A stretch of DNA of 64,000 bases. It comes from Clostridia bacterium (lineage in GTDB: Bacteria > Bacillota > Clostridia > Oscillospirales > CAG-272). The notes below the pieces were generated by a model. The model searched no databases and was not told the origin of the DNA. It saw only the letters and a program-made list of their open reading frames with translations. Shown here one piece after another: positions 26,332 through 45,298 of the stretch. Made by a program: the position numbers and the translations under genes. Numbering within the stretch: position 1 is the first letter of the stretch; the number at the start of each line of letters is the position of its first letter. The DNA lies in the NCBI GenBank assembly GCA_017536635.1, contig JAFXHA010000070.1, forward strand, positions 5,826 through 69,825. The letters are read 5' to 3'.

Positions 26332-27498
26332 ATGGAAAAGGTAAGATACGGTATTATAGGACTTGGAAATCAGGGATCTCATTATGCGTTGAAGATATTT
26401 GACGCGGGGAAAGCCGTTGATGCTTACGTCAGCGCAATGTGCGATATCAATCCCGCAAAGATCAAGGCTATGAAAGAGAAAACGGCAAACAAGGATGCCG
26501 TATATTTTGAGAATTACATAGAGATGCTCGACAGCGGTCTTTGCGATGCTGTGATCGTCGCGGTGCCGCATTATCAGCATCCCGAAATGGTAATAGAGTG
26601 TCTCAAACGCGGCATCAACGTCATTTGTGAAAAGCCCGCGGGCGTTTACGCGAAGCAGGTAAGAGAGATGAACGAGGTCGCAAAAGAGTCAAAGGCAAAA
26701 TTCGGAATGATGTTCAACCAGCGTACCAACTGCCTCTACCGTAAGATGCGCGAGATGATCGCTAACGGAGATATAGGTGAGCTTCAGAGAGTTACCTGGA
26801 TAATCACCAACTGGTACAGAACGCAGGGCTATTACGATAACGGAAGCTGGCGCGCTACCTGGGAGGGTGAAGGCGGTGGAGTTCTCATCAACCAGAGCCC
26901 TCACCAGCTTGACCTTGTTCAGTGGATAGTCGGCAAGCTTCCCAAGTACGTAAACGGCTTCTGTCAGTACGGCAAGTGGCACGATATTGAGGTCGAGGAT
27001 GACGTAACCGCATACTTTGAGTATGATAACGGCGCTACGGGAGTGTTCATCACCACGACAGGTGAGGCGCCCGGTACTAACCGCCTTGAGATATCGGGTA
27101 CTCTCGGAAAGCTTCTGTGCGAGGGTGGAAAGCTTTGGCTCTACAAGAACGACACCGATTCGCGCGAATTCTCCAAGAGTTGCGTCGGATTCGGTCAGCC
27201 GAAGGCTGAAAAGATAGAGGTTGAGACCGACGGACTCAATAAGCAGCACGCAGGTATCGTTGATAACTTTACCCGCACGCTTCTTGGAAAAGAAGAATTG
27301 TTCGTTGACGGTATCGAGGGTATCCGCGGCGTTGAGCTGATGAATGCTATCGAGCTTTCGGGCTGGCGCGGCGGCGTTAGGGTTGAGCTTCCCGTGAACG
27401 AGGAAGAATATCTTGCCGAGCTTAATAAGCATCGAGCAACGTCGCGCTTTAAAGAAAGCTTCACGGATACGGTTGCGGATACGGCGGGAACCTTCTGA
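26332..27498 (+). CDS. Gfo/Idh/MocA family oxidoreductase
   Basis: 388 aa with YGIIGLGNQG, a VICEKP motif and GGGVLINQSPHQLD. Confidence 0.85.
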   Translation: MEKVRYGIIGLGNQGSHYALKIFDAGKAVDAYVSAMCDINPAKIKAMKEKTANKDAVYFENYIEMLDSGLCDAVIVAVPHYQHPEMVIECLKRGINVICEKPAGVYAKQVREMNEVAKESKAKFGMMFNQRTNCLYRKMREMIANGDIGELQRVTWIITNWYRTQGYYDNGSWRATWEGEGGGVLINQSPHQLDLVQWIVGKLPKYVNGFCQYGKWHDIEVEDDVTAYFEYDNGATGVFITTTGEAPGTNRLEISGTLGKLLCEGGKLWLYKNDTDSREFSKSCVGFGQPKAEKIEVETDGLNKQHAGIVDNFTRTLLGKEELFVDGIEGIRGVELMNAIELSGWRGGVRVELPVNEEEYLAELNKHRATSRFKESFTDTVADTAGTF

Positions 27499-27506
27499 GG
27501 TGCAGT

Positions 27507-28484
27507 ATGAGAAGTGCTATAATAGGACTTGGCGTAATAGGTAAGGTGCACGCCAAGGTGCTCAGCTCACAGCAAAAGATGGTCGCAGCTCTTTGCGATA
27601 TAGATATCGGCGCAGCTGAACGCGTACGGGAGCAGTTTGCGCCCGATGCGGTGATATATTCGGATTACAGGCTGATGCTTGACGAAATAAAGCCCGACGT
27701 CGTACATATCTGCACACCGCACTACCTGCACGCAGAAATGGTAATAGCGGCGCTTGACAGGGGAATAAACGTTCTTTGCGAAAAGCCGCTTTGCATCAGA
27801 CGTGAGGATATCGGAAGAATCCTTGATGCAGAGAGCCGATCGACAGCACAGCTCGGGGTTTGTCAGCAGAACAGATATCTTGAGGTAAATGAGTTCGTCA
27901 AGGAATATCTCGCCGATAAAAAGATCGTCGGCGCGCACGGCTCTGTCGCTTGGAGCAGAGATGCGGATTATTATAATTCTGCCGAGTGGCGCGGAACACA
28001 GGATCAGGAGGGCGGTGGAGTGCTTATAAATCAGGCGCTTCATACGCTTGATCTCGTGCAGTGGTTCTGCGGAGAGCCGACTGAGGTAGTAGCAAGCAAG
28101 GACGCCCTTATGCTTGGTGATGTGATCGAGGTCGAGGACACTCTGTCAGCGCGGTATTTCGGCGAAAATCCCTTCAGCTTTTTCGCAACGAATTGCGCAC
28201 CTTGCGGTTTCCCCGTGCAGATCAATATACTGCTTTCCAACAAAGAAAAGCTGACCGTTCTTCCAAGTGTTCTTTTGATAAACGACGAGGTCAAGCTGCG
28301 CAAGGGACAGAAACAGGTGCTCGGCAAGGCGTGTTACGGAAACGGCCACGAGGCGCTGATCGACGACTTTTACGATTGCGTCGCCACGGGGCGTCATTTC
28401 ACGATCGACGGCGCAGAGGCTGCCAAGGTCGTGCGTATGATACTTGCCGCGTACGAGAGCAACGGAGAGAGAGTAAGCGTTTAA
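27507..28484 (+). CDS. Gfo/Idh/MocA family oxidoreductase
   Basis: 325 aa with AIIGLGVIGKVH, VLCEKP and GGGVLINQALHTLD motifs. Confidence 0.85.
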   Translation: MRSAIIGLGVIGKVHAKVLSSQQKMVAALCDIDIGAAERVREQFAPDAVIYSDYRLMLDEIKPDVVHICTPHYLHAEMVIAALDRGINVLCEKPLCIRREDIGRILDAESRSTAQLGVCQQNRYLEVNEFVKEYLADKKIVGAHGSVAWSRDADYYNSAEWRGTQDQEGGGVLINQALHTLDLVQWFCGEPTEVVASKDALMLGDVIEVEDTLSARYFGENPFSFFATNCAPCGFPVQINILLSNKEKLTVLPSVLLINDEVKLRKGQKQVLGKACYGNGHEALIDDFYDCVATGRHFTIDGAEAAKVVRMILAAYESNGERVSV

Positions 28485-30937: not shown

Positions 30938-30973
30938 AAAAACGCACCGCAAGTAATCTTGCGGTGCGTTTTT
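30938..30973. terminator. Bidirectional terminator between the acyltransferase gene and sigK
   Basis: aaaaacgcaccgcaag-taat-cttgcggtgcgttttt. Confidence 0.75.
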
Positions 30974-31649
30974 ATAGTGCTGCGCGGAGCTTTTCAAGCG
31001 CGGTCTTTTCGATTCGGCTGACGTATGAGCGGGAAATTTTGAGGCTTTCGGCAACCTCGCGTTGAGTGAGTGCCTTTTTGCCCGCGAGACCGTAGCGAAG
31101 CAGTATTATCTGCCTTTCTCGCGGAGAAAGAATTGTGTTTACGAGGCGCATAGCCTTTGCCGATGAGATCTTTCGCTCGATCTCTGTCTCGATCGATTCG
31201 TCGCTGCTGATGACGTCTATGTAGGTTAATGGGTTGCCGTTGTGATCGACGTCGATCGTGTCGTCAAGCGATACCTCGGCGGAAAATTTCTTTTTTGCGC
31301 GCATGCTCATCAGTATCTCGTTCTGAATGCAGCGCGCCGCGTAGGTCGCGAATTTCGTTCCCGTTTCCACCTTGAAGCTGTCGACCGCCTTTACGAGTCC
31401 GAGCGTGCCGATAGATACGAGATCCTCGCTGTTTTTTGCCGTTGAATAATATTTGCGCACGATGTGCGAGACAAGACGCAGATTGTGCAGTATCAGCTTT
31501 TGTCGGGCGTCCTCGTCGCCTGCTTCCTTTTTTATAAAGCAATCCTTTTCTTCTTCGGCAGACAGCGGCGGCGGAAAGCTCTGCGGTGTGTTGATGCCGA
31601 GTATCAGATGAATGAAATTGGTGAGTATGGCAATAAGAGCGGCAAGCAT
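30972..31649 (-). CDS. sigK: Sporulation sigma factor, pro-sigma-K-like
   Basis: Start set at the ATG at 31649, with RBS aaggagg 7 nt upstream. A short hydrophobic pro-sequence is followed by FPPPLS. The blocks HNLRLVSHIVRKY, ATYAARCIQNEILM and ISRSYVSRIEK match SigK better than SigE from my memory of the B. subtilis proteins. A CATACTAT sporulation-type -10 lies upstream. Confidence 0.65.
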   Translation of the reverse strand: MLAALIAILTNFIHLILGINTPQSFPPPLSAEEEKDCFIKKEAGDEDARQKLILHNLRLVSHIVRKYYSTAKNSEDLVSIGTLGLVKAVDSFKVETGTKFATYAARCIQNEILMSMRAKKKFSAEVSLDDTIDVDHNGNPLTYIDVISSDESIETEIERKISSAKAMRLVNTILSPRERQIILLRYGLAGKKALTQREVAESLKISRSYVSRIEKTALEKLRAAL

Positions 31650-31731
31650 AGTATCCTCCTTAAAACGTTTGTGATAAATAGTATGCCGCAAAAGTCAAAT
31701 AAATCCGTGTTGTCGGGGAGTTTAAAAAATG

Positions 31732-33103: not shown

Positions 33104-34774
33104 ATGAAAATGAAAAACGCAAAACGAATATTGGCAGTATTTTTGACGCTGCTTATGATACTGCCGTCCGCGGCACTTGTAGGATGCAGCAAGCGCTATT
33201 TGAGCAATGAAGATATGCCTACGGCTAACTCCCAGAGCAACAATGCTTTTGATGCCGAGTATGTAACTCCGGTTGAAGTCGAGGAAGACGAAATTACCTC
33301 GGACGCTGAAAAAGAGGAAGCCGAAAGCGCAAAGGAAACCGTTGCGGCTGAAAATAACAATCAGTCGAACCTTTCGGATGCGTTGGCAGGAGGTGTTGCG
33401 GCTGACCCCGATCCTACTATCAGCTTGTCTGAGCTTAGCCAGTATAAAATCATATATTACAATTCCGCTTACGCAAAGCTTTGTGCCGAGAAGGTGCAGA
33501 CCGCTATCAAGGATGCTACGGGTATTGAGCTTGCATTAGGAGTTGATGCCGAGACGGCCGTATCAACCAAAGAGATCCTCGTCGGTAAGACTAACAGAGA
33601 CGAGAGTATTGCCGTAAGATCGGACTATTCCCGTCATAACGTTTACTACGATATCAAGGTCGTCGGAACAAAGCTGGTCATTATGGCAGAGGGCTACAAA
33701 ACTCTTGAATACGTGACCAAAGAGTTTGAGCAGTATATGGCAAAATCCCAGCCCTTTGTTGGATCTGTTATCTCGGGAGACATCTCTGCAGCTATCGATA
33801 TTGTCGGAACGAGTATGTTTAACCGCGCAAGCGGGACCAGCCTTCGCGTGTTCCACTGGAACGTTGGCGCTCCGCTTCTGGCGCTTACTCCGGGAATACT
33901 TAACGTAACCGATATTCCGAGTAATACGCACCGCGGAGAAGTCGTCGCTGACATAATTCTTCAGCTTGATCCCGATATTATAACCACGAACGAGATATAT
34001 TACGGCCATGCATCAGGTAAGTTCTATGATGCGTTTATTACTGAGATCTCCGAGTTTTATAACATTCTCGACAATGATTATTATGCTTCGGCATCGTCTT
34101 CGGTATGTTCTTCTTCTTCCGGATATGAAACGGGATATCCCACAAAATATCCTAATCCTGTCGTAGGCGCGTATAAGAGCGGTGAAATATCGATTCCCGA
34201 AAACATACTTTATAAAAAGAGTCTTGGACTTACCGTTACCTATTCCGGTTGGAGATATCTTGATGAGGATACGGGAACTGTAACCACCAATAACCCTTCC
34301 GGTGCAGTATATTTCCACGGATATCACACGGCAGTATTTAAGACCTCGGCAGGCAAGAGCTTTATTATCTCTGTCGGCCATTACGGCTCGGCAAAAACGG
34401 ACAACAAATTTGCCGCTGATCACTATACCGCTATTTCTTATGCGGCAAACAAGGCGGGCGTTACGCTTTCTTCCACACCCACGATAGTTACGGGAGATAT
34501 GTTTACCTGGAATGCAACGAATTGTAACGCAGGTTATAATTATTGGAGCTCTACGAAGGGATTTAACGATTCCCAGCTCAAAGCCAAAACAAACGCCAAC
34601 GGCAATACGACTCACGGCACCTTCCATACGGCGGGCGTCAGAAAGCCCGGCGTTAGCGAAGACTTTGTATGGTATAAGAATTTTACGTCAGCTCTTTGCT
34701 TTAAAGTTTTGGTTTCTATGGAGATCGACGATTGCAGCGACCATTATCCCGTTATGTCGGATCTTAAGTTTTAA
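33104..34774 (+). CDS. Secreted lipoprotein with C-terminal endonuclease/exonuclease/phosphatase (EEP) domain
   Basis: 556 aa with lipobox ALVGCSK and an acidic linker. EEP landmarks are LRVFHWNVG, IITTNEIY and a terminal DCSDHYPVMSDLKF. RBS aaaggaga. Confidence 0.7.
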   Translation: MKMKNAKRILAVFLTLLMILPSAALVGCSKRYLSNEDMPTANSQSNNAFDAEYVTPVEVEEDEITSDAEKEEAESAKETVAAENNNQSNLSDALAGGVAADPDPTISLSELSQYKIIYYNSAYAKLCAEKVQTAIKDATGIELALGVDAETAVSTKEILVGKTNRDESIAVRSDYSRHNVYYDIKVVGTKLVIMAEGYKTLEYVTKEFEQYMAKSQPFVGSVISGDISAAIDIVGTSMFNRASGTSLRVFHWNVGAPLLALTPGILNVTDIPSNTHRGEVVADIILQLDPDIITTNEIYYGHASGKFYDAFITEISEFYNILDNDYYASASSSVCSSSSGYETGYPTKYPNPVVGAYKSGEISIPENILYKKSLGLTVTYSGWRYLDEDTGTVTTNNPSGAVYFHGYHTAVFKTSAGKSFIISVGHYGSAKTDNKFAADHYTAISYAANKAGVTLSSTPTIVTGDMFTWNATNCNAGYNYWSSTKGFNDSQLKAKTNANGNTTHGTFHTAGVRKPGVSEDFVWYKNFTSALCFKVLVSMEIDDCSDHYPVMSDLKF

Positions 34775-34846
34775 CCTTAGTTGGCTATTATATTGGATCA
34801 AAGTAATTATGACGGCTACACGAGCCAAATTGAAAGGAGAGCTTTT

Positions 34847-37800
34847 ATGAAAATGAAAGCTTTAAAAAGAATACTGTCAATGCTTATGACGGTGTTGATG
34901 CTTGCGGGAACGTTTTCGATGATGTTTACTCACGTCGAAGCAGCCGATACGCAGGTCACTTCACCTAAAACATATAGTAGCGCCGCAAACGGTGATAAGC
35001 TTCTGGACGTTGACTTTACTCAACATTTTACGGCAGTTGACGACACCTCTACCGCTTTTACAACTAACGGTACAAAGTATAATTCAAGCGGAACTGCGGT
35101 CAGTACCGCTACAAATGCTTGGAGAAAGAGCCTTGTTGCTTCTCCTTCGGTAGCTACTTCCAACGAGCTTAAGATAGAGTATGCTGACACTACTACCGAT
35201 GCGACAGACCACAGATACATCGGCTACATTCCCGCATACGATCTTGATAACAAAACCGTAACTATGGAATTTGAGTATTTCCGTTCAAGCGGTATAAAGT
35301 CCAAATTCTACTTTGGTAAGGGTTCTTTTATATATGGCACGGACACAGATGATATCGTAAGTGGTGGAACAGATGCCGATATGCCCAACCTTGGTCTCGA
35401 GGTCAAAGCCGGTACTGCCGGATACCGACTTATGAGACAGAGTGCCGCAATAACGGCAGGCGTAACTACGGCAAAGTCCGGCATCGTTACCTCTAACGGC
35501 GAGCAGAGTACAACGTTTAAGGTCATACTTAAGGGCGGTACCAAGGTTACCAAGACCTTGTATGAGGGAAAAGAATGTCAAACAGCCAACGTTGAAAGAT
35601 GGACCGGATCGATCATTCCCGTATCCTACGCGATAGTTGAGATTACTTCAAGCGGCAGCGTTATAAACGTTGTCAGTGGTACTTTCTATCAGCCCTCGGG
35701 TATCGGCATAGTATTCGGTATAGGTGAGTACGATGCATTGGCATCGGGCGCGTATTACGGTGTCAGAAATCTTGCTATTTACAAGGGATGTACTACCTGC
35801 GTGGATGCGGATAAGGATCATTCGTGTGATTTCTGCTCCAAAGCGGTGGGAACTCACCTTGAACCCGCAAATTCGCACACCTGTGCGTATTGCGGCAAGG
35901 CGGCAGGCACCTGCTTTGATGCCGATCCCGTAGATCACAAGTGTGATAAGTGCGGAGCGGCATACGGTACTCACACTATTGCTACCGGCAAGCACGTCTG
36001 CGCACATTGTGGAAAGACACATTACGTTGATTGGACATCTACACATACGACAGATGACACTGCCAATATTTTTTCGGCTACTACAGATACAATAACATGT
36101 AATAGCAAAGCTAATGACGATATTTATTACAGAGTGGATTCTTTAGCGAGCTATACTATTCCGGGTAACGTGTATGAAGTCGATTACTGGATAGAGCAGA
36201 CGAGCTTTAGTTACCGTATCGGTTTCCAGCCTGTAAGCGCTCCCAGCGTAACGGGTAGCGGAACTACAGTACGAATAGGTTGGACGACGTGTGTCGTTGG
36301 GAAAAATCCTACCCCGTCTAATAATGATTATATGTGCCTGTTAGAAAACGGCTCTTTGAAAAATACATCACAAGCTGTAGAGGCACCTCGTGATATTGAC
36401 ACGAGTAATAATAATCGTCAGCATTTTAAAATAAAGGTTGACGGTATCAACAACAACATGACGCTTTATGTCAAGTATAATGGGGAATTTGTTGAGGCTG
36501 ATAGTGTTGCCGTGGACTTCTCAAATAGTACGGCTAAGTATTTAAGACCCACTTTCTTCATATATGATGCTATTCCTTCGGGAGAGAAGGTAACGATCGG
36601 CGGAGTTACAGTAACGAAGCTTTGCGTTGATACTAACAGCGACCATATTTGCGATTATGACGGATGCGGCGGAAAGGTCGGCGAATGCTCTGATTCGGAC
36701 ACCGATAGCGATCATATTTGCGATCTTGGCTGCGGAAGCGTTGCATCCGATTGCTATGACGGTTCTGTAATCGATCACAAGTGTGAGCTCTGCGGCGCCA
36801 AGATTCGCTCGCTTTGCGACGACGGTTCTACCGTTGACCACAAGTGTGACGTGTGCGGAACGAGAATGATCTCCGAATGTGTTGACAATAAGAAGGCAAA
36901 CGGCAGCGCAGGCAAGGATCACCTTTGTGATGTTTGCGGCGTTGCGATCGGATCTCTTCTTGACCTTACCGGAGTTAGCACTATCTCGGGCTATGCTTCG
37001 CAGGCAGGCACCCTCGTTGACAGCGGCCTCGGATATATCAAGATTTACAATAAGACTATCGCAAACGGCGATATGTACGGTAAGGATACCGGCAAGCTCA
37101 TTAAAAATCATAAATATGAGATAACTTATACCATTAACAAGGGAGTAGCTAATCAATCCCGAATAACGATGAACTTCCTTTACGGCTCGTATCTGAGAAG
37201 TGACGGCGTTACGAGAGCGGGACAGCTCGGTTGGGTTATTGGAACCGACGGCAGGATATCGAAAGCCTCGGGTTACGCTATCAATGAAGAATCAAACGGT
37301 AACTACGATTGGAAGATCGTTGACCGTGATATAGATACGTCAAGCGATAACGAGCAGCAGTTCAAGGTAGTTATCGACGGCTTTGGATGTCAGCTCTTGC
37401 TCTACGTTATGAAGAATGGTGAATGGGTAGAGTGTGAGGACCTTTCGATTCCGTTTACTATTGCGGACAATGCTACGTTGATTCCTGGATTCGGAACTTA
37501 CGATGCCGTTACCGGAGACAATTATATCAGGATGAGTGACGTAACTCTCCACGAGCTCTGCGGCTACAACGATAGCCATATCTGTACCGTGTGCGGAGCG
37601 AAGGTGAGCTCGTACGTTGATTTCAGAACCGAAAGAGATGATTGGGCATACGAGAACTGGAGCACAGAGATTGTAGAAAGAGAGAGCGGCTCCATTAAGG
37701 TATCCAATAAGGATACAGCCGGCGGCGGTTTTTACGGTATAAAGACCAATTATGAAGTACCCGGAAACGTATATGAGATAACCTATACGGTAAAGATTCC

Positions 37801-39277
37801 GAGCATGACCTCAACCGGCGCTCGCGCGAGAATGTCATTCGTCAACGGAACCTTCCATCTCGCTAACAGTGGTGATGCTAAGGGAGAGATCGGTTGGATA
37901 CTTTACCGATCGAGCGATAAGAGCGGCGCGGGTTTGAATTATATAACTCCTACCGCGACAAATAACATAAAGCATAATGACGCCTTTGAGGCAATCAGAG
38001 ATATAGACACTGCTAACGATAACGAGCAAAAGTTCAAGGTTATCGTCGACGGTATCAATTACACAATGACACTTTATGTCGTTCGAAACGGAGATTATTT
38101 TTGGGTTGCAACTCAGAGCTTCAGCATCAATGGCGCTGATACAAAGCTCAGAGTTCTTACGGGCTCTTATGATGCCATAACGGGCGATAACTATATTGAG
38201 CTTAGCGATGTGCTTATCACTCGCGGATGCTCTGTAACAAAGGGTGATACAACGCATAAGTGTTCTATTTGCGGAAAAACGTGTGGAACACATAGCACAG
38301 GACACTCCTGTCTGATATGTATGAAGGCAACCTCTTGCTCGGATGGTGACAGCGATCACCTTTGCGACACCTGCGGACTTCGTCTCAGCAATTGTGCGGC
38401 GGCATCGGGTAAGCATACGTGTAGTACGTGTGGCGCGATTCTGTCTATGTGTGACGACACTAATCTGGACCATAAGTGCGACAGATGTTCCGTTGTGCTT
38501 CATCCTTGTTACGATACCAAGGGCGACGGAGACCATAAGTGCGACTGGTGTAATAAGACGGAGCTGGATACGTATGCATGCGCGGATAATGACAAGGATC
38601 ACCGTTGTGATGACTGTTATAAGACCGGATTCGGAACTCACGAAGATGGCACGCCGGTTGACGGCAAGTGTGAATACTGCGGTAAATTCGCAGACCATAC
38701 CTGCGTAGATGAACCGGATGACGGCGACCACGAATGTGATTACGAAATTTGTGTTGGGATCGAAAACGCTTGCGTAGATTCCAATAAGGACCACGTATGT
38801 GATAACGACAGCGCTTGTGAGGTATACAGCTCGGGCGAAAACGCGCACGAGGATAACAATAGCGACTATAAGTGTGATTACTGTGGCAAGTGGACCGATC
38901 CATTTATTTCAGTCGACGTGGTATGGACGGAGATGTCTTTTACCTTTGAAGAAACCGATTGGAATGTTGCAACGCACACCTACGGCAACCGCAGCTGGAC
39001 GGTCGCCGAGAACGGCGGTACGTTGACGGTTACCAATAACAGCAACGTCCACGTGTTAGCAAGCTTTTCATATCTCGCCAACGCGGGCTTCGAGAGCATA
39101 GGCGCGGAGTTCCATATTGAGGAAGAATCCGTTGAAGCACAAAATATACCGATCAATGAAACTATTACTGTAACGGTTCATCCTACGGGTGTGCCTAACG
39201 AACATTTTGGATCTGCCGCAATTGGCACGATGACCATAACGATCACTAAAAATGGGGAGGTTGTTAACGATGAGTAA
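34847..39277 (+). CDS. Giant secreted Cys/His-knuckle repeat protein (1476 aa), unknown family
   Basis: Start moved to the ATG at 34847 (RBS aaaggaga at 34833-34840); the track start is a TTG. The signal peptide is MKMKALKRILSMLMTVLMLAGTFSMMFTHVEA|AD. It has about 21 C-x(4-12)-H-x-C-x(2-4)-C motifs in 4 blocks, three repeated domains of about 200 aa and a distinct C-terminal domain. I recognise no LPXTG, SLH or other anchor. Confidence 0.85.
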   Translation: MKMKALKRILSMLMTVLMLAGTFSMMFTHVEAADTQVTSPKTYSSAANGDKLLDVDFTQHFTAVDDTSTAFTTNGTKYNSSGTAVSTATNAWRKSLVASPSVATSNELKIEYADTTTDATDHRYIGYIPAYDLDNKTVTMEFEYFRSSGIKSKFYFGKGSFIYGTDTDDIVSGGTDADMPNLGLEVKAGTAGYRLMRQSAAITAGVTTAKSGIVTSNGEQSTTFKVILKGGTKVTKTLYEGKECQTANVERWTGSIIPVSYAIVEITSSGSVINVVSGTFYQPSGIGIVFGIGEYDALASGAYYGVRNLAIYKGCTTCVDADKDHSCDFCSKAVGTHLEPANSHTCAYCGKAAGTCFDADPVDHKCDKCGAAYGTHTIATGKHVCAHCGKTHYVDWTSTHTTDDTANIFSATTDTITCNSKANDDIYYRVDSLASYTIPGNVYEVDYWIEQTSFSYRIGFQPVSAPSVTGSGTTVRIGWTTCVVGKNPTPSNNDYMCLLENGSLKNTSQAVEAPRDIDTSNNNRQHFKIKVDGINNNMTLYVKYNGEFVEADSVAVDFSNSTAKYLRPTFFIYDAIPSGEKVTIGGVTVTKLCVDTNSDHICDYDGCGGKVGECSDSDTDSDHICDLGCGSVASDCYDGSVIDHKCELCGAKIRSLCDDGSTVDHKCDVCGTRMISECVDNKKANGSAGKDHLCDVCGVAIGSLLDLTGVSTISGYASQAGTLVDSGLGYIKIYNKTIANGDMYGKDTGKLIKNHKYEITYTINKGVANQSRITMNFLYGSYLRSDGVTRAGQLGWVIGTDGRISKASGYAINEESNGNYDWKIVDRDIDTSSDNEQQFKVVIDGFGCQLLLYVMKNGEWVECEDLSIPFTIADNATLIPGFGTYDAVTGDNYIRMSDVTLHELCGYNDSHICTVCGAKVSSYVDFRTERDDWAYENWSTEIVERESGSIKVSNKDTAGGGFYGIKTNYEVPGNVYEITYTVKIPSMTSTGARARMSFVNGTFHLANSGDAKGEIGWILYRSSDKSGAGLNYITPTATNNIKHNDAFEAIRDIDTANDNEQKFKVIVDGINYTMTLYVVRNGDYFWVATQSFSINGADTKLRVLTGSYDAITGDNYIELSDVLITRGCSVTKGDTTHKCSICGKTCGTHSTGHSCLICMKATSCSDGDSDHLCDTCGLRLSNCAAASGKHTCSTCGAILSMCDDTNLDHKCDRCSVVLHPCYDTKGDGDHKCDWCNKTELDTYACADNDKDHRCDDCYKTGFGTHEDGTPVDGKCEYCGKFADHTCVDEPDDGDHECDYEICVGIENACVDSNKDHVCDNDSACEVYSSGENAHEDNNSDYKCDYCGKWTDPFISVDVVWTEMSFTFEETDWNVATHTYGNRSWTVAENGGTLTVTNNSNVHVLASFSYLANAGFESIGAEFHIEEESVEAQNIPINETITVTVHPTGVPNEHFGSAAIGTMTITITKNGEVVNDE

Positions 39278-39788
39278 AAGAATATTGATAAGCATTATTG
39301 CGCTTTCCGTTGCTTTTGTAATATCGGTTTCGGTTTCTATATGGGCAATTTTCTTTAGAGATAGGGACGAGGTGCTACCTCCCGATTATTCGCCTCAGGA
39401 TACCGACGATAATCAGATCCCCATCCCCGACGATCCGGGAGGTGAAATTCAAACGCCTGAGGGGGGCAGCGCGGTGAATATTACCTATGCCGAAAACGTA
39501 ACGGTTGATTTGTCGGATGAGAAAGCAACTCTTTATTACGCCAATCCCTCGAGATCCGGTCAGAACGTAGCTATTGCTGTCGTGGTTGGCGAGGAGGTAG
39601 TATTAAGATCCGAGCTGATCACTCCGGGCAATATGGTTACAAGCCTTCCTCTTGCTGACAGAGCGAAGAAGAAACTTACCGTAGGCAGTTATAACGCCGA
39701 AATTATCGTTTATTGCTATCATCCCGAAACAGGTGAAAAGGCAATGGTCGATACCAAAGGTACGGTCATTTTGACCGTGTCTGAATAA
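39270..39788 (+). CDS. Single-pass membrane protein with extracytoplasmic beta-rich domain, unknown family
   Basis: Start set at the ATG at 39270 (RBS gggagg 9 nt upstream), which overlaps the giant gene's stop by 8 nt. It has TM helix ILISIIALSVAFVISVSVSIWAIFF, a Pro/Asp linker and a domain of about 100 aa. Confidence 0.65.
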   Translation: MSKRILISIIALSVAFVISVSVSIWAIFFRDRDEVLPPDYSPQDTDDNQIPIPDDPGGEIQTPEGGSAVNITYAENVTVDLSDEKATLYYANPSRSGQNVAIAVVVGEEVVLRSELITPGNMVTSLPLADRAKKKLTVGSYNAEIIVYCYHPETGEKAMVDTKGTVILTVSE

Positions 39789-39850: not shown

Positions 39851-40384
39851 ATGAAAAAAATTCTCGCAATCGCACTCACTCTTGCACTTGCTCTTTGCTT
39901 GGCAGTGCCCGCATTCGCAGACGAGGCTACCCTCTCAAGTAACACCACCCTTACTAAAAACATTACCGTTAGCGGTACATACGATGAAAATCCCACTGGA
40001 GAAGTCATTTCCGTTGACGTATCTTGGGGCACTATGAGCTTTACGTACACCCCTGCTAATGACGGTACTTGGAATCCTGCAACTCACGCCTATACCAACG
40101 TTCCGGATCCTGTCTGGACTCCGACCGGTAACACGATCACCGTAACCAACCACTCCAATACCGCTGTTGATGCTGAGCTGAGCTTCGCAAAGGCTGTTGA
40201 TACCATCACAGGTACTTTCACTGAGACTTCCGGTACTGCTAACAATGGCAAATTAGAGCTTGCTACCGCAGAAGATACGGAAGTTAATGAGGCTCCCACC
40301 GCTACCGCTACATTCACCGTTTCCGGTTCTATTGCCGAGAGCGACGACCTCGGTACCATTACCGTTACAATCGTTAACAAGTAA
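39851..40384 (+). CDS. Small secreted protein, paralog of the giant protein's C-terminal domain
   Basis: 177 aa with signal peptide MKKILAIALTLALALCLAVPAFA|DEA and RBS aaaggagag. The sequence ISVDVSWGTMSFTYT...ATHAYT...ITVTNHSN...GTITVTIVNK aligns to the giant's residues ISVDVVWTEMSFTFE...ATHTYG...LTVTNNSN...GTMTITITKNG. Confidence 0.75.
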   Translation: MKKILAIALTLALALCLAVPAFADEATLSSNTTLTKNITVSGTYDENPTGEVISVDVSWGTMSFTYTPANDGTWNPATHAYTNVPDPVWTPTGNTITVTNHSNTAVDAELSFAKAVDTITGTFTETSGTANNGKLELATAEDTEVNEAPTATATFTVSGSIAESDDLGTITVTIVNK

Positions 40385-40888
40385 TTGAAAAACACAAAAG
40401 AAAATAAGCTTGTGCTCGTGCTTTCTTTGGCGTGCGTTGTTGCGGTCATCGTTATGATCGTTTCGCTATGCATGCCAAAGGAGGCGGAGCAGAAGTCTTT
40501 TGTCCCCCCTCCGTTTGATGACGGGGCCGCGGTCGGAGAGCCCACCGTGCCCGATCATCTTGGGTACAGTATTCTTTACCAAGAAGGTATGTCCTTCAAA
40601 GTGGGAATTTGCGGAAAGATCAACGTTACGAACGGTTCTGCCGACGTTTATCTTACTAACGTTTCCGAAAATAACGTGTGGCTAAAGGTGAGGTTTTACG
40701 ACCGATCAGGCGACATTGTTGGAGAAAGCGGATTGATAAAGCCCGGCGAGTATTTGCAAAGCGTAACATTGAATGATATATCCGACACGGATAATATAAC
40801 CGTAAAAGTAATGTCTTACGAGCCTGATACGTACAAAAGTATGGGCGCAATTACACTGAACCCCAAAATATCAATTTTAACTACATAA
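40385..40888 (+). CDS. Single-pass membrane protein, distant paralog of 39270..39788
   Basis: 167 aa with a TTG start abutting the upstream TAA stop. It has TM helix LVLVLSLACVVAVIVMIVSL, a Pro-rich linker and then a domain sharing the L-Y-x-N-x-S...S-x-L-I-x-P-G...Y-x-P-(E/D)-T pattern with 39270..39788. Confidence 0.55.
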   Translation: MKNTKENKLVLVLSLACVVAVIVMIVSLCMPKEAEQKSFVPPPFDDGAAVGEPTVPDHLGYSILYQEGMSFKVGICGKINVTNGSADVYLTNVSENNVWLKVRFYDRSGDIVGESGLIKPGEYLQSVTLNDISDTDNITVKVMSYEPDTYKSMGAITLNPKISILTT

Positions 40889-41016: not shown

Positions 41017-42258
41017 ATGTCGAATATGAAGAATGCCATTGTAGGACAGTCGGGTGGCCCCACCGCGGCGATAAATGCCACGCTTGCGGGAGTTATTGAG
41101 GGAGCGCTCGCGTCTGAAAAAATAAATGCCGTTTACGGAATGAGATACGGAATCGAGGGGTTGCTCGCGGAGAACACCGTTCGCCTTGACGAGATATTCG
41201 GTACGGGCGACGAAAACCTGAAGCTGCTCAAGCAGACACCTGCGGCATATCTTGGATCTTGCAGAAAAAAGCTGCCCTCGCCTACGTCTGATAAGCCTGA
41301 GGATATTGCGCTTTACGAGAAGCTTTTTGCAATACTTGAAAAGCTGAATATCGGATATTTCTTTTACATAGGCGGTAACGATTCTATGGATACCGTCGCA
41401 AAAATGTCGGTATATGCCGAAAAGATCGGCTCGGATATAAGGCTTATAGGCGTTCCAAAGACGATAGATAACGATCTTATGGCAACCGACCACACCCCCG
41501 GCTTTGGCTCGGCAGCAAAATATATAGCTACCGTAGCGCAGGAAATAATCCGCGATTGCGCCGTTTATACCGTCAAGGCGGTTACGGTAATAGAGGTAAT
41601 GGGACGTGATGCAGGCTGGCTTACCGCGGCATCGGCGATCGGCAGGGAAGTAAGCGGATATGCGCCCGATTATGTATATCTGCCCGAGGTAGCTTTCGAT
41701 ATGGAAGCATTCCTCGAGGACGTTGCGGCGGCGTTTGAAAAGCATCCCAACGTAGTTATAGCGGTATCCGAGGGAGTGCGTCTGGCTGACGGCAGATACG
41801 TCGGCGAGGCAACGCAGAGCGGAAGCGTGGATATTTTCGGGCATAAATATCTCGGCGGTACGGGTGATACGCTGATCGACGCAGTAAAGGCGCGCTTTGG
41901 CTGTAAGGTGCGCGCGGTCGAGCTCAATCTTCCGCAGAGATGCGCGGGACATCTTCTCTCGAAAACGGATATCGAGGAGTCGGTACGCATAGGTGCGTCG
42001 GCAGTCGAGGCGGCGACAAACGGTATCAGCGGCGAGATGATGCTCTTTGAAAGAGCGCAGGGAAGTGAATACGTTTGCTCGATAGGTCATAAGAGCGTTA
42101 TGGATATAGCCAACGCGGCGAGATGCGTTCCGCGCGAATTTATCAACGAGCGCGGCAATAACGTAACAGACGCTTGCGTGGATTACCTCAAGCCGCTCAT
42201 CGCGGGCGAATATCCTGTGATCTTCAAGGGCGGAATCCCTGAGCATATTTGCCTTTAA
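41017..42258 (+). CDS. pfk: 6-phosphofructokinase family protein (phosphoryl donor ATP vs PPi not decided)
   Basis: 413 aa with GQSGGPTAAINA, IGGNDSMDT, PKTIDNDL and MGRDAGWL motifs. Confidence 0.8.
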   Translation: MSNMKNAIVGQSGGPTAAINATLAGVIEGALASEKINAVYGMRYGIEGLLAENTVRLDEIFGTGDENLKLLKQTPAAYLGSCRKKLPSPTSDKPEDIALYEKLFAILEKLNIGYFFYIGGNDSMDTVAKMSVYAEKIGSDIRLIGVPKTIDNDLMATDHTPGFGSAAKYIATVAQEIIRDCAVYTVKAVTVIEVMGRDAGWLTAASAIGREVSGYAPDYVYLPEVAFDMEAFLEDVAAAFEKHPNVVIAVSEGVRLADGRYVGEATQSGSVDIFGHKYLGGTGDTLIDAVKARFGCKVRAVELNLPQRCAGHLLSKTDIEESVRIGASAVEAATNGISGEMMLFERAQGSEYVCSIGHKSVMDIANAARCVPREFINERGNNVTDACVDYLKPLIAGEYPVIFKGGIPEHICL

Positions 42259-42377: not shown

Positions 42378-43184
42378 TTATTTTTTCAATATTTCTTTTT
42401 CCTTGGACGGTGAATATCCCCAAAAAGCTATATAATTACGATAGAACGTGGTATAATCTCCAAATCCGCAACGTTCACAAACCATCGTGGGCTTTTCACC
42501 GTCTCGGATCATTTTTTGCGCTAAAAGAAGTCGCTTTTCCATGATGTATTTCTTCGGTGTCTGATGAAGCTCCTTTTGAAACAGGCGGAAAAGATAGCTT
42601 TCACTTACAAAAAGATGCTCTGCTATCTCGTCTATACCCGTAATAGTGCAAAGATTGTCATTTGTATATTTGAGAGCTTTTGAGATTAAAGGAGATAGAG
42701 TAGTAGTTTTTTTTGAAAGCGAATATGGAAACAAAATGATGTTATAAAACAGCTCGGAGAGCAAATGAGCCAATATTTTTTCAAATGTGTCTATGTCGCT
42801 TTTTTGATAATACAGATCGCATTTGCGAAAGATGCCCTCAATGATATCGTTTCCCGCAAGGTTTATTACCTCCATATCGTTCGGTATAAGTCTTGCGCTT
42901 TCTACGTTATGCTTTTCCGCGTCAAAGAGAATATCATATCGCTCATATCTTGACGGTGCATCGATTTGAATAAAATGGTATTGAAATGGGCGTATTAGAA
43001 TAAGATCGCCTTTTTTTAACTTGTATTTTTTATCCTCTATAACGTGTGTCGCATTGCCGTCCAAAAAGTATATCAATTCATATGTATTGTGCGTGTGCAT
43101 GGAATAAGTGTTACACGGAAGATCCTCGGATACTTCATGCTTGAAAAACATTCGGTCTGTTGTCCATATATAATCGGTTGTCAT
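42378..43184 (-). CDS. AraC family transcriptional regulator
   Basis: 268 aa with a cupin N-terminus and a C-terminal HTH (GFGDYTTFYRNYIAFWGYSPSKE). Confidence 0.85.
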   Translation of the reverse strand: MTTDYIWTTDRMFFKHEVSEDLPCNTYSMHTHNTYELIYFLDGNATHVIEDKKYKLKKGDLILIRPFQYHFIQIDAPSRYERYDILFDAEKHNVESARLIPNDMEVINLAGNDIIEGIFRKCDLYYQKSDIDTFEKILAHLLSELFYNIILFPYSLSKKTTTLSPLISKALKYTNDNLCTITGIDEIAEHLFVSESYLFRLFQKELHQTPKKYIMEKRLLLAQKMIRDGEKPTMVCERCGFGDYTTFYRNYIAFWGYSPSKEKEILKK

Positions 43185-43332: not shown

Positions 43333-44403
43333 ATGAAAAAGTTAAATGTTGCTATTATAGGACAGGGGAGAAGCGGTAAGGATATTCACGGAAAGTACTA
43401 TCGAAGCACAGATAATCAATATTATAACGTGAAGTACGTGGTTGATGGTGATGAGTATCGCAGAAGTGTATCTGAGAAGATATATCCGAGTTGTAAGACG
43501 TTTGCAAATTATGAAGAATTATTTGCACTTGATGACGTTGATCTTGTAGTGAATGCCACGTATTCCGAAATGCACTATCCCATAACGAAGGATCTTCTTT
43601 TACACGGAAAGAATGTCCTTGTAGAAAAGCCCTTTGGACGCTCACGTTATGAGTGTGATGATCTCATAAAAACGGCTAAGGATAAGGGGGTAGTTCTCGC
43701 GGTATTCCAACAGACCTTTTTAGCTCCGTTTTATCAATTTGTATATGATACGATAAGTTCGGGAAAGCTTGGCGACGTCAAGCAGATAAACATTCGTTAT
43801 AACGGTTTTTCTCGCCGTTGGGATTGGCAGACCTTGCAGAAGAAATGCGCGGGCAGCACCTACAATACAGGCCCTCACCCGATAGGTATGGCTCTTGGAT
43901 TTTTGGATTTTGACAAAGATGCGAGAGTGGTTTACAGTAAGCTTGATACCGCGCTCACAAGCGGAGATGCCGACGACTATGCAAAAATTCTCATCACTGC
44001 GCCCAATAAGCCGTTGATCGACGTTGAAATTTCGGCTATCGACGCATACACCGATTACAATATTAAGGTTCAAGGAAGTAAAGGAACGCTCAAGGCAAAG
44101 CCGTCGGTATATGATATGGTATATATTTGCGACGGCGAGAACCCCGAAAGACCCGTTATTGAGGAATTTCTTAAGGATAACAATGGCAATCCCATTTACT
44201 GCTCGGAAAATCTCATCAAGCATATTGAATCGGAAAAATTCGCTGGTACGGCATTTGATATAGGTACGGCAAAGCTTTACGAACAGCTTTATTTTAAGAT
44301 TACTGAGGGTAGAGATATGACCGTAACACCCGAAATGGCAGCTGATATTATTTCGGTAATTGAGACGGTGCATGCACAGAACCCCTTGCCGTTGAAATAT
44401 TGA
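43333..44403 (+). CDS. Gfo/Idh/MocA family oxidoreductase
   Basis: 356 aa with VAIIGQGRSG and the VLVEKP motif. Confidence 0.8.
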   Translation: MKKLNVAIIGQGRSGKDIHGKYYRSTDNQYYNVKYVVDGDEYRRSVSEKIYPSCKTFANYEELFALDDVDLVVNATYSEMHYPITKDLLLHGKNVLVEKPFGRSRYECDDLIKTAKDKGVVLAVFQQTFLAPFYQFVYDTISSGKLGDVKQINIRYNGFSRRWDWQTLQKKCAGSTYNTGPHPIGMALGFLDFDKDARVVYSKLDTALTSGDADDYAKILITAPNKPLIDVEISAIDAYTDYNIKVQGSKGTLKAKPSVYDMVYICDGENPERPVIEEFLKDNNGNPIYCSENLIKHIESEKFAGTAFDIGTAKLYEQLYFKITEGRDMTVTPEMAADIISVIETVHAQNPLPLKY

Positions 44404-44428
44404 GTTGATACATATGGAGAATATAATT

Positions 44429-45298
44429 ATGAAAAAGATTGCGATACTTGGTTGTGAAAACTCGCATGCAAACGCGTTTTTGAATTTTATAAAAGAAAAA
44501 GAAGAATTTTCAGATGTTGAAGTTGTCGGCGTATACAGCGATGAAAGAGAAGCGGCAGAAAAGCTGAACGACAAATTTGGAGTTCCTGTAATGGACGGTT
44601 ACGCGGATGCCGTCGGAAAGATAGACGGCCTGGTTATCACAGCCCGTCACGGAGACAACCACTATAAATATGCGAAGCCGTATATTGACAGCGGCATTCC
44701 TATGTTTATTGATAAGCCGATCACAATCGACGAAACGGAAGCCGTCGAATTTATGAGACAGCTTCAAGATAAAAAAATTCGTATATCTGGCGGATCTTCC
44801 TTGAAACAGGACGTATTTATTCGTGAGCTGAAGCGGGACGCCGAAAGCAACGCAGACGGCGCTACTCTCGGCGGTTTCGTACGCGCCCCTTATCAGAGTT
44901 CGAACGAATACGGCGGCTTCTATTTCTACGCACAGCACCTTGTTGAGATGGTCTGCGAGATATTTGGCAGATTTCCTATCTCGGTGATAGCTAAGCAAAA
45001 CGGAAATCAGCTTCACGTTCTCTTCCATTATGAAGCTTACGACTGCGTTGGACTCTTCTGTGACAATAATTATCTCTATTATGCCTCACGTATGGCTGAA
45101 AAGGCTTCAAAATCCTTTGTTATTCCCACGACTAACGACTGGTTTTATGAGGAATTCAAGGAATTCTACGAGCTTCTTCAAGGCGGCGAACAAGCTGTAA
45201 AATACGATGAGTTTATTTCACCCGTTTTCATTATGAATGCTATTGAGCGCTCCATTGCAAGCGGCAAGGAAGAGCTTTTGAGAAAGATAGAGCTTTAA
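44429..45298 (+). CDS. Gfo/Idh/MocA-like oxidoreductase
   Basis: Start set at the ATG at 44429 (ggaga 8 nt upstream); the track start is a TTG. Motifs are MKKIAILGCENSHA and MFIDKP. Confidence 0.65.
   Translation: MKKIAILGCENSHANAFLNFIKEKEEFSDVEVVGVYSDEREAAEKLNDKFGVPVMDGYADAVGKIDGLVITARHGDNHYKYAKPYIDSGIPMFIDKPITIDETEAVEFMRQLQDKKIRISGGSSLKQDVFIRELKRDAESNADGATLGGFVRAPYQSSNEYGGFYFYAQHLVEMVCEIFGRFPISVIAKQNGNQLHVLFHYEAYDCVGLFCDNNYLYYASRMAEKASKSFVIPTTNDWFYEEFKEFYELLQGGEQAVKYDEFISPVFIMNAIERSIASGKEELLRKIEL

Follow-up and report, generated by a model that had tools for sequence, protein, structure and literature searches.

A Cys/His knuckle-like repeat of about 19 residues in tandem arrays of gut Clostridia surface proteins, a candidate metal-stapled spacer

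Results and discussion

The window analysed here, a stretch of 64,000 nucleotides (nt) from a Clostridia bacterium (contig JAFXHA010000070.1), carries on its forward strand, at 34847-39277, a gene for a secreted multidomain protein of 1,476 amino acids (aa) that contains 21 copies of a short Cys- and His-rich unit. The unit belongs to a large family of tandem repeats, and its pattern suggests a zinc-knuckle-type mini-domain in an extracellular, tandem and possibly two-metal form that is used like stalk repeats, with no curated family or solved fold matched in the databases searched. Taken as a whole, the data lead us to favour, with modest confidence, metal-stapled mini-domains that form rigid spacers.

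A unit repeated 21 times in four arrays

The motif was searched as a regular expression in the translated open reading frame (ORF) at 34781-39277, the numbering of which is used for the array residues below. Eighteen copies of H-x-C-x(2-4)-C were found, together with one HVCDNDSAC, in which five residues separate the Cys pair, and two copies lacking the His (GKCEYC and YKCDYC). An earlier reading made from the letters alone (the sequence-only reading) had counted 19 copies of H-x-C-x(2-4)-C; the total stands, but only 18 of them have that spacing. The two His-less copies and the layout in arrays of 4, 5, 1 and 11 were recovered as described, with coordinates within a few bases. The pattern in the protein can be written as [C/H]-x(5-13)-H-x-C-x(2-5)-C, and its 21 copies are distributed as follows.

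35789-36022 (aa 337-414), forward strand: array 1, four units, with His at 347, 366, 386 and 405
36623-36937 (aa 615-719), forward strand: array 2, five units, with His at 622, 645, 666, 687 and 714
37559-37594 (aa 927-938), forward strand: array 3, one full unit, C927-x5-H933-x-C935-x2-C938
38228-38884 (aa 1150-1368), forward strand: array 4, eleven units by motif search of the translation, with His at 1159, 1175, 1193, 1212, 1231, 1252, 1274, 1317 and 1338 and His-less units at 1295 and 1363

Successive units lie 16-27 residues apart. A Cys stands upstream in 17 of the 21 units, as the sequence-only reading had noted (16 at a distance of 6-11 residues, one at 14), and the remaining four carry a His at the equivalent position (distances 7, 7, 8 and 7). 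The first ligand position (ligand 1) is in this way occupied by Cys (17) or His (4) in 21 of 21 units, and all four ligand positions are filled in 19, the His being absent in two. Read from the unit table, the units divide into 15 acidic and six acid-less ones; the two kinds alternate in array 1, where ligand 1 is C, H, C and H in order.

When the protein was shuffled 2,000 times, the motif occurred 0.22 times on average and at most four times, compared with the 21 copies observed, and the rest of the window, read in six frames, gave only six scattered chance matches. Together with the conservation in the family described below, the shuffles rule out a chance or low-complexity artefact, and the periodicity cannot be put down to counting by eye. 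Tandem Repeats Finder detected no DNA-level repeat in the gene, which rules out a recent duplication or a misassembly and indicates that the units are old and diverged, their periodicity being a conserved protein pattern kept by selection. Binding of heme c was also ruled out, the motif being H-x-C-x-x-C and not C-x-x-C-H.

A repeat family of gut Clostridia

A 36-position di-unit profile (consensus xxCxDxDxDHxCDxCGxxx twice) was seeded with units of this protein and run exhaustively against 1.84 billion representative proteins, giving 1,138 proteins at E<=1e-3, 681 at <=1e-10 and 262 at <=1e-30. The view that the repeat is a rarity of one protein is overturned by a family of this size. Among the best 150 of the 1,138 proteins, each has 6-70 units (median 16), and 61 of the 150 have at least two separate arrays, as here. 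The present protein belongs to this family in that its own units seed the profile and a signal peptide is present, its period being 16-27 residues compared with a family mode of 19-20. A whole-protein homology search returned seven relatives only, five of which carry the unit in different architectures (Glug, pectinesterase/Big_3, Flg_new and C-terminal membrane anchors), while a search with a 5-unit alignment returned only 20 small fragments. Where source names are given for family members, they read 'hypothetical protein [Clostridia bacterium]'.

A fixed-gap DNA pattern for two adjacent units was found at 120 or more loci (at least 120) in species-representative genomes. Nearly all of the matches listed are metagenome-assembled genomes (MAGs) of gut Clostridia from humans, ruminants, deer, horse, rabbit and chicken, and the taxa among them include Eubacteriales, Oscillospiraceae, Christensenellaceae, Acutalibacteraceae, Ca. 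Scatosoma, Ca. Stercoripulliclostridium, Faecousia, Ruminococcus and Lachnospiraceae. Four pattern matches (L040, L049, L061 and L091) lie in bins labelled Bifidobacteriaceae, Muribaculaceae (a 1.4-kb contig), Bacillales and Coriobacteriaceae, and these may reflect mis-binning or horizontal transfer. The family appears to be nearly restricted to gut Clostridia that are uncultured and strictly anaerobic. In other family members the arrays often close with a cap, [DP]-H-[IT]-W-x3-[TY]-x5-6-C-x-x-C-G-x-x-x-G (for example P0002 at aa ~2290-2330, and P0003 at aa ~415-450 and 885-920), which is absent from this protein.

A mapping to an already described repeat family with known structure, named in the sequence-only reading as a ground for refutation, was not obtained in any of the searches. 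No Pfam-A or NCBIfam model covers the repeat, either in this protein or in twenty other family members; Pfam TSP_3, Ldl_recept_a, zf-C2H2, zinc-ribbon and rubredoxin models gave no match to this protein at E<=1, and NCBIfam TIGR04104 scored only E 0.17. A profile search of PDB sequences returned only sub-threshold matches (E>=0.02) to the first knuckle of C2H2 fingers, and a Foldseek comparison of the 104-row model described below with solved structures gave a best E of 5.7 and no resembling fold. In the literature searched there was neither a paper describing this repeat nor a description of tandem extracellular zinc-finger-like arrays as building blocks of surface proteins.

The sub-threshold matches have a visible origin, as the string D-H-K-C-D-x-C-G-K resembles the linker and first knuckle of classical C2H2 fingers, K-P-[HY]-K-C-x-x-C-G-K. 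In contrast to these fingers, the repeat is without the H-x3-5-H half, has no helix in the model, has a period of 19 rather than 28, and is extracellular and bacterial. In one family member, P0038, a Pfam zf-C2H2_6 score of 53.5 bits (cut-off 25) for the whole protein arises from the sum of many weak knuckle matches, no single stretch being significant, and automatic annotation could mislabel family proteins as C2H2 zinc fingers in this manner. LITAF, a single cytosolic domain of eukaryotes that has a second CxxC and inserts into the membrane through a hydrophobic segment, gave no sequence match to the repeat. What the LITAF/SIMPLE-like domain shares with the unit is the H-x-C-x-x-C motif string, as it stands in the available text of PMC3033906 and PMC5343772.

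More than 1,000 large surface proteins that lack annotation contain the unit; they come from gut Clostridia that are uncultured (Oscillospiraceae, Christensenellaceae, Ca. Scatosoma, Faecousia and others), and to our knowledge extracellular zinc-finger-like modules are rare in bacteria. A definition of the family would bring annotation to a considerable share of microbiome dark matter and end the mislabelling as C2H2 fingers.

Ligands, register and predicted structure of the unit

The family consensus has a period of 19 and reads [LIVM]-[ST]-x-[C/H]-x-D-x-[DN]-x-[DN]-H-x-C-D-x-C-G-x-x; with occupancies in per cent, the logo of 1,407 canonical units is [LIVM]-[ST]-x-[C75/H25]-x-D87-x-[DN]83-x-[DN]89-H-x-C-D89-[IVYL]-C-G61-x-x. 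Among 2,770 units from 157 proteins, a Cys fills ligand 1 in 67% and a His in 31%, with 1.6% having neither; six residues separate ligand 1 from the His in 2,061 units, and the Cys pair is C-x2-C in 1,926 and C-x3-C in 688. Where the search pattern left a position free, His occupies ligand 2 in 96.6% and Cys occupies ligand 3 in 100%, and ligand 1 is C in 57%, H in 41% and D in 2%. The linker between units is exactly six residues long in 86.9% of cases and the period is 19 or 20 in 75%, with two hydrophobic positions per 19-residue unit.

Two subtypes can be distinguished. About 78% of the canonical units are acidic, while the acid-less subtype (consensus H-x-x-A-x-G-[ST]-H-x-C-[AE]-Y-C) retains few or none of the acidic residues and has mostly His as ligand 1. 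The acidic residues are lost jointly (D+2 vs D+10, odds ratio 20, Fisher p 2e-52, a statistic inflated by relatedness among the repeats), and this coordinated loss suggests that the Asp/Asn residues act together.

Whether ligand 1 pairs with the knuckle before or after it was judged from two observations. The state of ligand 1 shares mutual information with the loop and core that follow (in the range 0.15-0.22, with 0.215 at +2, 0.209 at +6, 0.205 at +11 and 0.192 at +16), compared with 0.05 or less at most positions of the preceding core, relatedness again inflating these values. In addition, array 3 consists of a single unit that has its upstream Cys and is complete, no Cys or His coming after it. 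The register of the sequence-only reading, in which ligand 1 belongs to the knuckle following it, is accordingly the favoured one on the available alignments, and array 3 indicates that a single unit can be self-contained. Among array-first units 95% have ligand 1, but a Cys or His also follows 79% of the array-last ones, which leaves some weight with the other register.

AlphaFold2 was applied to aa 612-726 (array 2) with a 33-row alignment, which gave a predicted local distance difference test score (pLDDT) of 63.7, a predicted template modelling score (pTM) of 0.36 and no Foldseek matches. This run was superseded by one on aa 1183-1246 (nt 38327-38518, array 4) with 104 family rows, gapless three-unit windows taken from at most 72 proteins, for which the prediction was confident (pLDDT 90.9, pTM 0.64). 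The resulting model contains no helices and one beta-bridge per unit, from His+1 to ligand 4+3; as modelled, this bridge would be the hairpin expected around a C-x-x-C-G knuckle.

Metal site or disulfides

The pattern favours a Cys/His metal site of zinc type over disulfides, given the exchange of Cys and His at ligand 1, the near-invariant His, the random Cys parity and the small number of hydrophobic residues. Ligand 1 accepts only Cys, His and rarely Asp, and therefore behaves as a zinc ligand and not as a disulfide partner; with just two hydrophobic positions per unit, something other than a core must hold the unit together. The 19-20-residue unit would thus be a self-contained mini-domain with almost no hydrophobic core, held by a tetrahedral metal site. 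The metal would most likely be Zn2+, bound by ligand 1 (Cys/His), by the invariant His and by both Cys of the rubredoxin-type C-x-x-C-G knuckle. In this the four-ligand metal knuckle put forward by the sequence-only reading is the better supported option, the invariant Cys at ligand 3 being a further point in its favour.

With zinc knuckles, rubredoxin-type C-x-x-C-G knuckles and zinc ribbons the repeat has in common a short, here predicted, beta-hairpin tipped by a C-x-x-C-G turn, four putative Cys/His ligands within about 13 residues, the near absence of a hydrophobic core and the interchange of Cys and His at a ligand position. Zinc ribbons and rubredoxin use two C-x-x-C (four Cys), whereas the present repeat has one C-x-x-C plus a His and a [C/H], in the form [C/H]-x6-H-x-C-x2-C. 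It differs from these systems also in being extracellular, in forming head-to-tail arrays of up to 70 units and in having an acidic loop embedded in each unit.

The alternative that fares best is a repeat stabilised by disulfides and calcium in the style of thrombospondin type 3 (TSP3) or LDL-A, with disulfides within or between units, the Asp cluster binding Ca2+ and no zinc. The protein is exported and rich in Cys, with a D-x-[DN]-x-[DN] loop, and the Cys-rich extracellular repeats of eukaryotes are usually disulfide-bonded. Disulfides would nevertheless have to accommodate three Cys in most units and only two in the 31% where ligand 1 is His. Cys parity is also random: 181 Cys clusters in the family are odd and 202 even, and all four arrays here are odd (11, 15, 3 and 31 Cys). 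The His, conserved at 96.6%, would be left unexplained, the hosts are strict gut anaerobes, and neither TSP_3 nor Ldl_recept_a was matched. Exported thiols can stay reduced in strict anaerobes. We regard this alternative as unlikely.

Calcium may still have a part in the zinc-type reading, as a second, Ca-type site formed by four acidic residues is plausible in the acidic subtype; its four Asp/Asn, with an EF-hand-like 1-3-5-9 spacing, may hold a second cation (Ca2+). In the portion of PMC3123361 available, Dx[DN]xDG is given as the canonical calcium-loop motif, with Gly at position 6. The repeat has D in 87%, [DN] in 83% and [DN] in 89% of units at positions 1, 3 and 5, D in 89% at position 9, and His at position 6. 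Asp/Asn at 1, 3, 5 and 9 within a Cys-containing extracellular tandem repeat is thus what it has in common with TSP3 and Dx[DN]xDG loops as far as these are described in that portion (PMC3123361). Apart from this, the invariant His replaces the Gly at position 6, no match to TSP_3 (PF02412) was obtained, and the Cys parity speaks against the TSP3 disulfide pattern. The resemblance to thrombospondin type-3 repeats suggested by the sequence-only reading is reduced to the shared D-x-D-x-D pattern, as no TSP_3 or other calcium-repeat model was matched and the Gly has given way to His.

Arrays as spacers between modules

The remainder of the protein consists of the following parts, between which the arrays are interspersed.

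34847-34942, forward strand: Sec signal peptide MKMKALKRILSMLMTVLMLAGTFSMMFTHVEA, cleaved before AD, with a basic n-region, a hydrophobic core and a V-E-A cleavage motif
34943-35788, forward strand: domain A, about 280 aa, fold unknown, 30% identical (E 1e-25) to aa 1-261 of P0005
36023-36622, forward strand: module B1, about 200 aa, the first of three paralogous globular modules by alignment of the three paralogues
36938-37558, forward strand: module B2, from the same three-paralogue alignment
37595-38227, forward strand: module B3, from the paralogue alignment, with a marginal Pfam Pam3_gp18 match at aa 1075-1109 of the 1,498-aa ORF
38885-39274, forward strand: C-terminal domain, about 130 aa, 37% identical (E 8e-12) to the ORF at 39851-40384

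Domain A has no Pfam match. The mutual identity of B1, B2 and B3 is 28-29%, with an invariant R-D-I-D-T..N-x-Q-x-F-K...D-G...L-Y-V..N-G signature; neither a three-paralogue profile against PDB sequences nor each paralogue against Pfam gave anything significant, the Pam3_gp18 match reaching 25.2 bits at a cut-off of 24.2. The signal peptide, read as MKMKALKRIL...THVEA/AD (the slash marking the cleavage), is clear and bears out the Sec export claimed by the sequence-only reading. Of the 157 family proteins, 139 begin with a signal-peptide-like N-terminus and 40 have a C-terminal membrane anchor, the last unit of the latter lying a median of 109 residues from the end. The partner domains in the family are diverse and unrelated surface modules (LRR_5, Flg_new, Laminin_G_3, Big_2/3, Glug, pectinesterase, CWB2 and cohesin).

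In the present protein the arrays start one or two residues past the last conserved strand of the preceding domain (IYKG/C, VTKL/C, LHEL/C and ITRG/C, the slash marking the array start) and run directly into the next module. Elsewhere in the family, P0012 and P0179/P0182, from different metagenome samples, are alleles with 99.4% identity that differ by a clean indel of 94 aa, or five units, within an array. Finally, the Clostridia MAG protein P0005 (1,589 aa) combines a homologue of domain A with a C-terminal EEP domain and contains no knuckle units, from which it follows that the units are not needed for catalytic or binding chemistry. The flush placement against domains, the position near anchors, the fixed linker, the diverse partners, the five-unit allele difference and P0005 together lead us to infer a generic structural role, in which the arrays are metal-stapled, stiff and length-tunable spacers. 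A rigid stalk is likewise the best supported of the roles listed in the sequence-only reading, on the grounds of linker length, anchors, domain-flush placement and allele difference. With their fixed 6-residue linkers, the arrays would act as stiff, probably protease-resistant rods spacing domain A and modules B1-B3 apart, and the 11-unit array would be a stalk beside the C-terminal domain, the presumed attachment end. If true, the repeat would offer a 19-residue rigid spacer, genetically tunable in length, that could interest protein engineers.

Periscope proteins and the stalk repeats of fibrillar adhesins are tandem surface arrays that space functional domains from the anchor, as described in the available parts of PMC8201768 and PMC9210967. 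The present family is like them in showing whole-unit copy-number differences between near-identical alleles and a fixed inter-unit linker (compared with the same part of PMC8201768). It differs, as far as those parts go, in that their repeats are Ig-like or SHIRT domains of 80-100 residues, whereas the units here are 19 residues long, putatively metal-dependent and interspersed between modules. The highly identical DNA tandem repeats by which Periscope proteins are recognised do not occur in this gene, and the five-unit indel is seen only in P0012 vs P0179. The arrays would work like a Periscope stalk, but the protein is not a Periscope member.

Several points weigh against metal-stapled rigid spacers, in addition to the inflation of the statistics noted above. 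The H-x-C-x2-C arrangement would place three ligands within six residues, which is uncommon. Of the array-last units, 79% are followed by Cys or His, so an inter-unit register of the ligands is possible. The calcium-site reading draws solely on the spacing, with a His in place of the position-6 Gly and no calcium-repeat model matched. The length variation was seen only in another family member, the units of this gene being diverged at the DNA level. Lastly, the protein has no recognisable anchor, and the choice of its cell-proximal end is a guess.

Metal capture, storage or buffering is a different use of the same ligands, in which the arrays would be a surface sink for Zn2+ or other cations with tens of sites per protein, serving competition with the host or neighbours or detoxification. 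Up to 70 putative sites per protein, the very dense metal ligands and acidic residues and the cell-surface location would suit such a role. Tetrahedral Cys/His sites are, on the other hand, usually structural and slow to exchange; a sponge would need neither placement at domain boundaries and anchors nor a fixed linker, and no linkage to a metal transporter was seen in the window. A sink is in our estimation improbable.

The same applies to adhesive or ligand-binding repeats, whose units would bind a host glycan or protein, a polyanion or extracellular DNA; we consider these improbable as well. Tandem repeats of surface proteins are often adhesive, and the neighbouring gene encodes an EEP-family enzyme. 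The units are, however, strongly acidic, which is unfavourable for binding DNA or polyanions, their surface positions are variable except for the ligand and acidic ones, and their partners include many unrelated binding and enzymatic domains. The link between nucleic-acid or polyanion binding and the EEP enzyme that the sequence-only reading had entertained is not borne out, as the repeat pairs with many unrelated surface domains and the EEP fusion P0005 is without knuckles. A chain of redox-active metal centres on the surface protein, whether iron (rubredoxin-like) or copper, that would serve electron transfer outside the cell or the sensing of oxygen or redox state, is very unlikely: C-x-x-C-G is the classic rubredoxin knuckle, the small family member P0170 carries a precomputed Rubredoxin Pfam match and the habitat is anoxic and rich in Fe2+, but ligand sets of the Cys3His and Cys2His2 type in which Cys and His exchange are typical of Zn and not of the Fe(Cys)4 of rubredoxin, this protein has no rubredoxin match, and no redox partners lie nearby.

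A more far-reaching idea can also be framed, which we consider unlikely. The unit would be a two-metal mini-fold not seen before, with a Zn-type Cys/His site interlaced with a Ca-type Asp site in 13 residues, and the rods would be stable only in a gut lumen that is free of oxygen and replete with metal. Oxidation of the thiols by oxygen, or withholding of metal by the host, would then collapse or shorten the surface layer, making it an environmental switch specific to anaerobic Clostridia. The family in any case raises questions about extracellular thiol-metal chemistry in strict anaerobes and about its response to oxygen and to host nutritional immunity.

Gene start and neighbouring genes

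The mechanically called ORF on the forward strand (34781-39277, stop at 39277) has a TTG start and 1,498 aa. The true start is almost certainly the ATG at 34847, since a well-spaced AAAGGAG Shine-Dalgarno sequence lies about 7 nt 5' of it and the Sec signal peptide begins there. Given this strong Shine-Dalgarno sequence, the first 22 codons of the mechanical ORF, in the region 34781-34849, are probably untranslated. P0001 in the ENA metagenome data is identical to the 1,476-aa protein. Two neighbouring genes share homology with parts of this protein or of its relatives.

33104-34774, forward strand: lipoprotein (lipobox LVGC) with an EEP-type domain, Pfam Exo_endo_phos E 1.6e-4 and 21.9 bits, below the gathering score of 24.5
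39851-40384, forward strand: small secreted protein two genes downstream, sharing the C-terminal domain of the 1,476-aa protein

The upstream lipoprotein matches the C-terminal 450 aa of P0005 at 47% identity (E 4e-123). Since P0005 fuses homologues of domain A and of this lipoprotein, the two adjacent gene products probably act together, as judged from homology. Downstream, the gene at 39851-40384 is flanked by small membrane-protein ORFs at 39252-39788 and 40385-40888, each with a single N-terminal hydrophobic segment. The C-terminal domain, the 39851-40384 product and the flanking ORFs may form a set for surface attachment or assembly; the C-terminal domain and the 39851-40384 set gave no family match. 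Neither a sign of a mobile element nor metal-transport genes were seen among the flanking genes of the window, which are of an ordinary chromosomal kind and comprise four GFO/IDH/MocA oxidoreductases, a sigma-70 family factor, a phosphofructokinase and an AraC-type regulator, with coordinates 26332-28484, 43333-45298, 30972-31691, 41017-42258 and 42378-43184.

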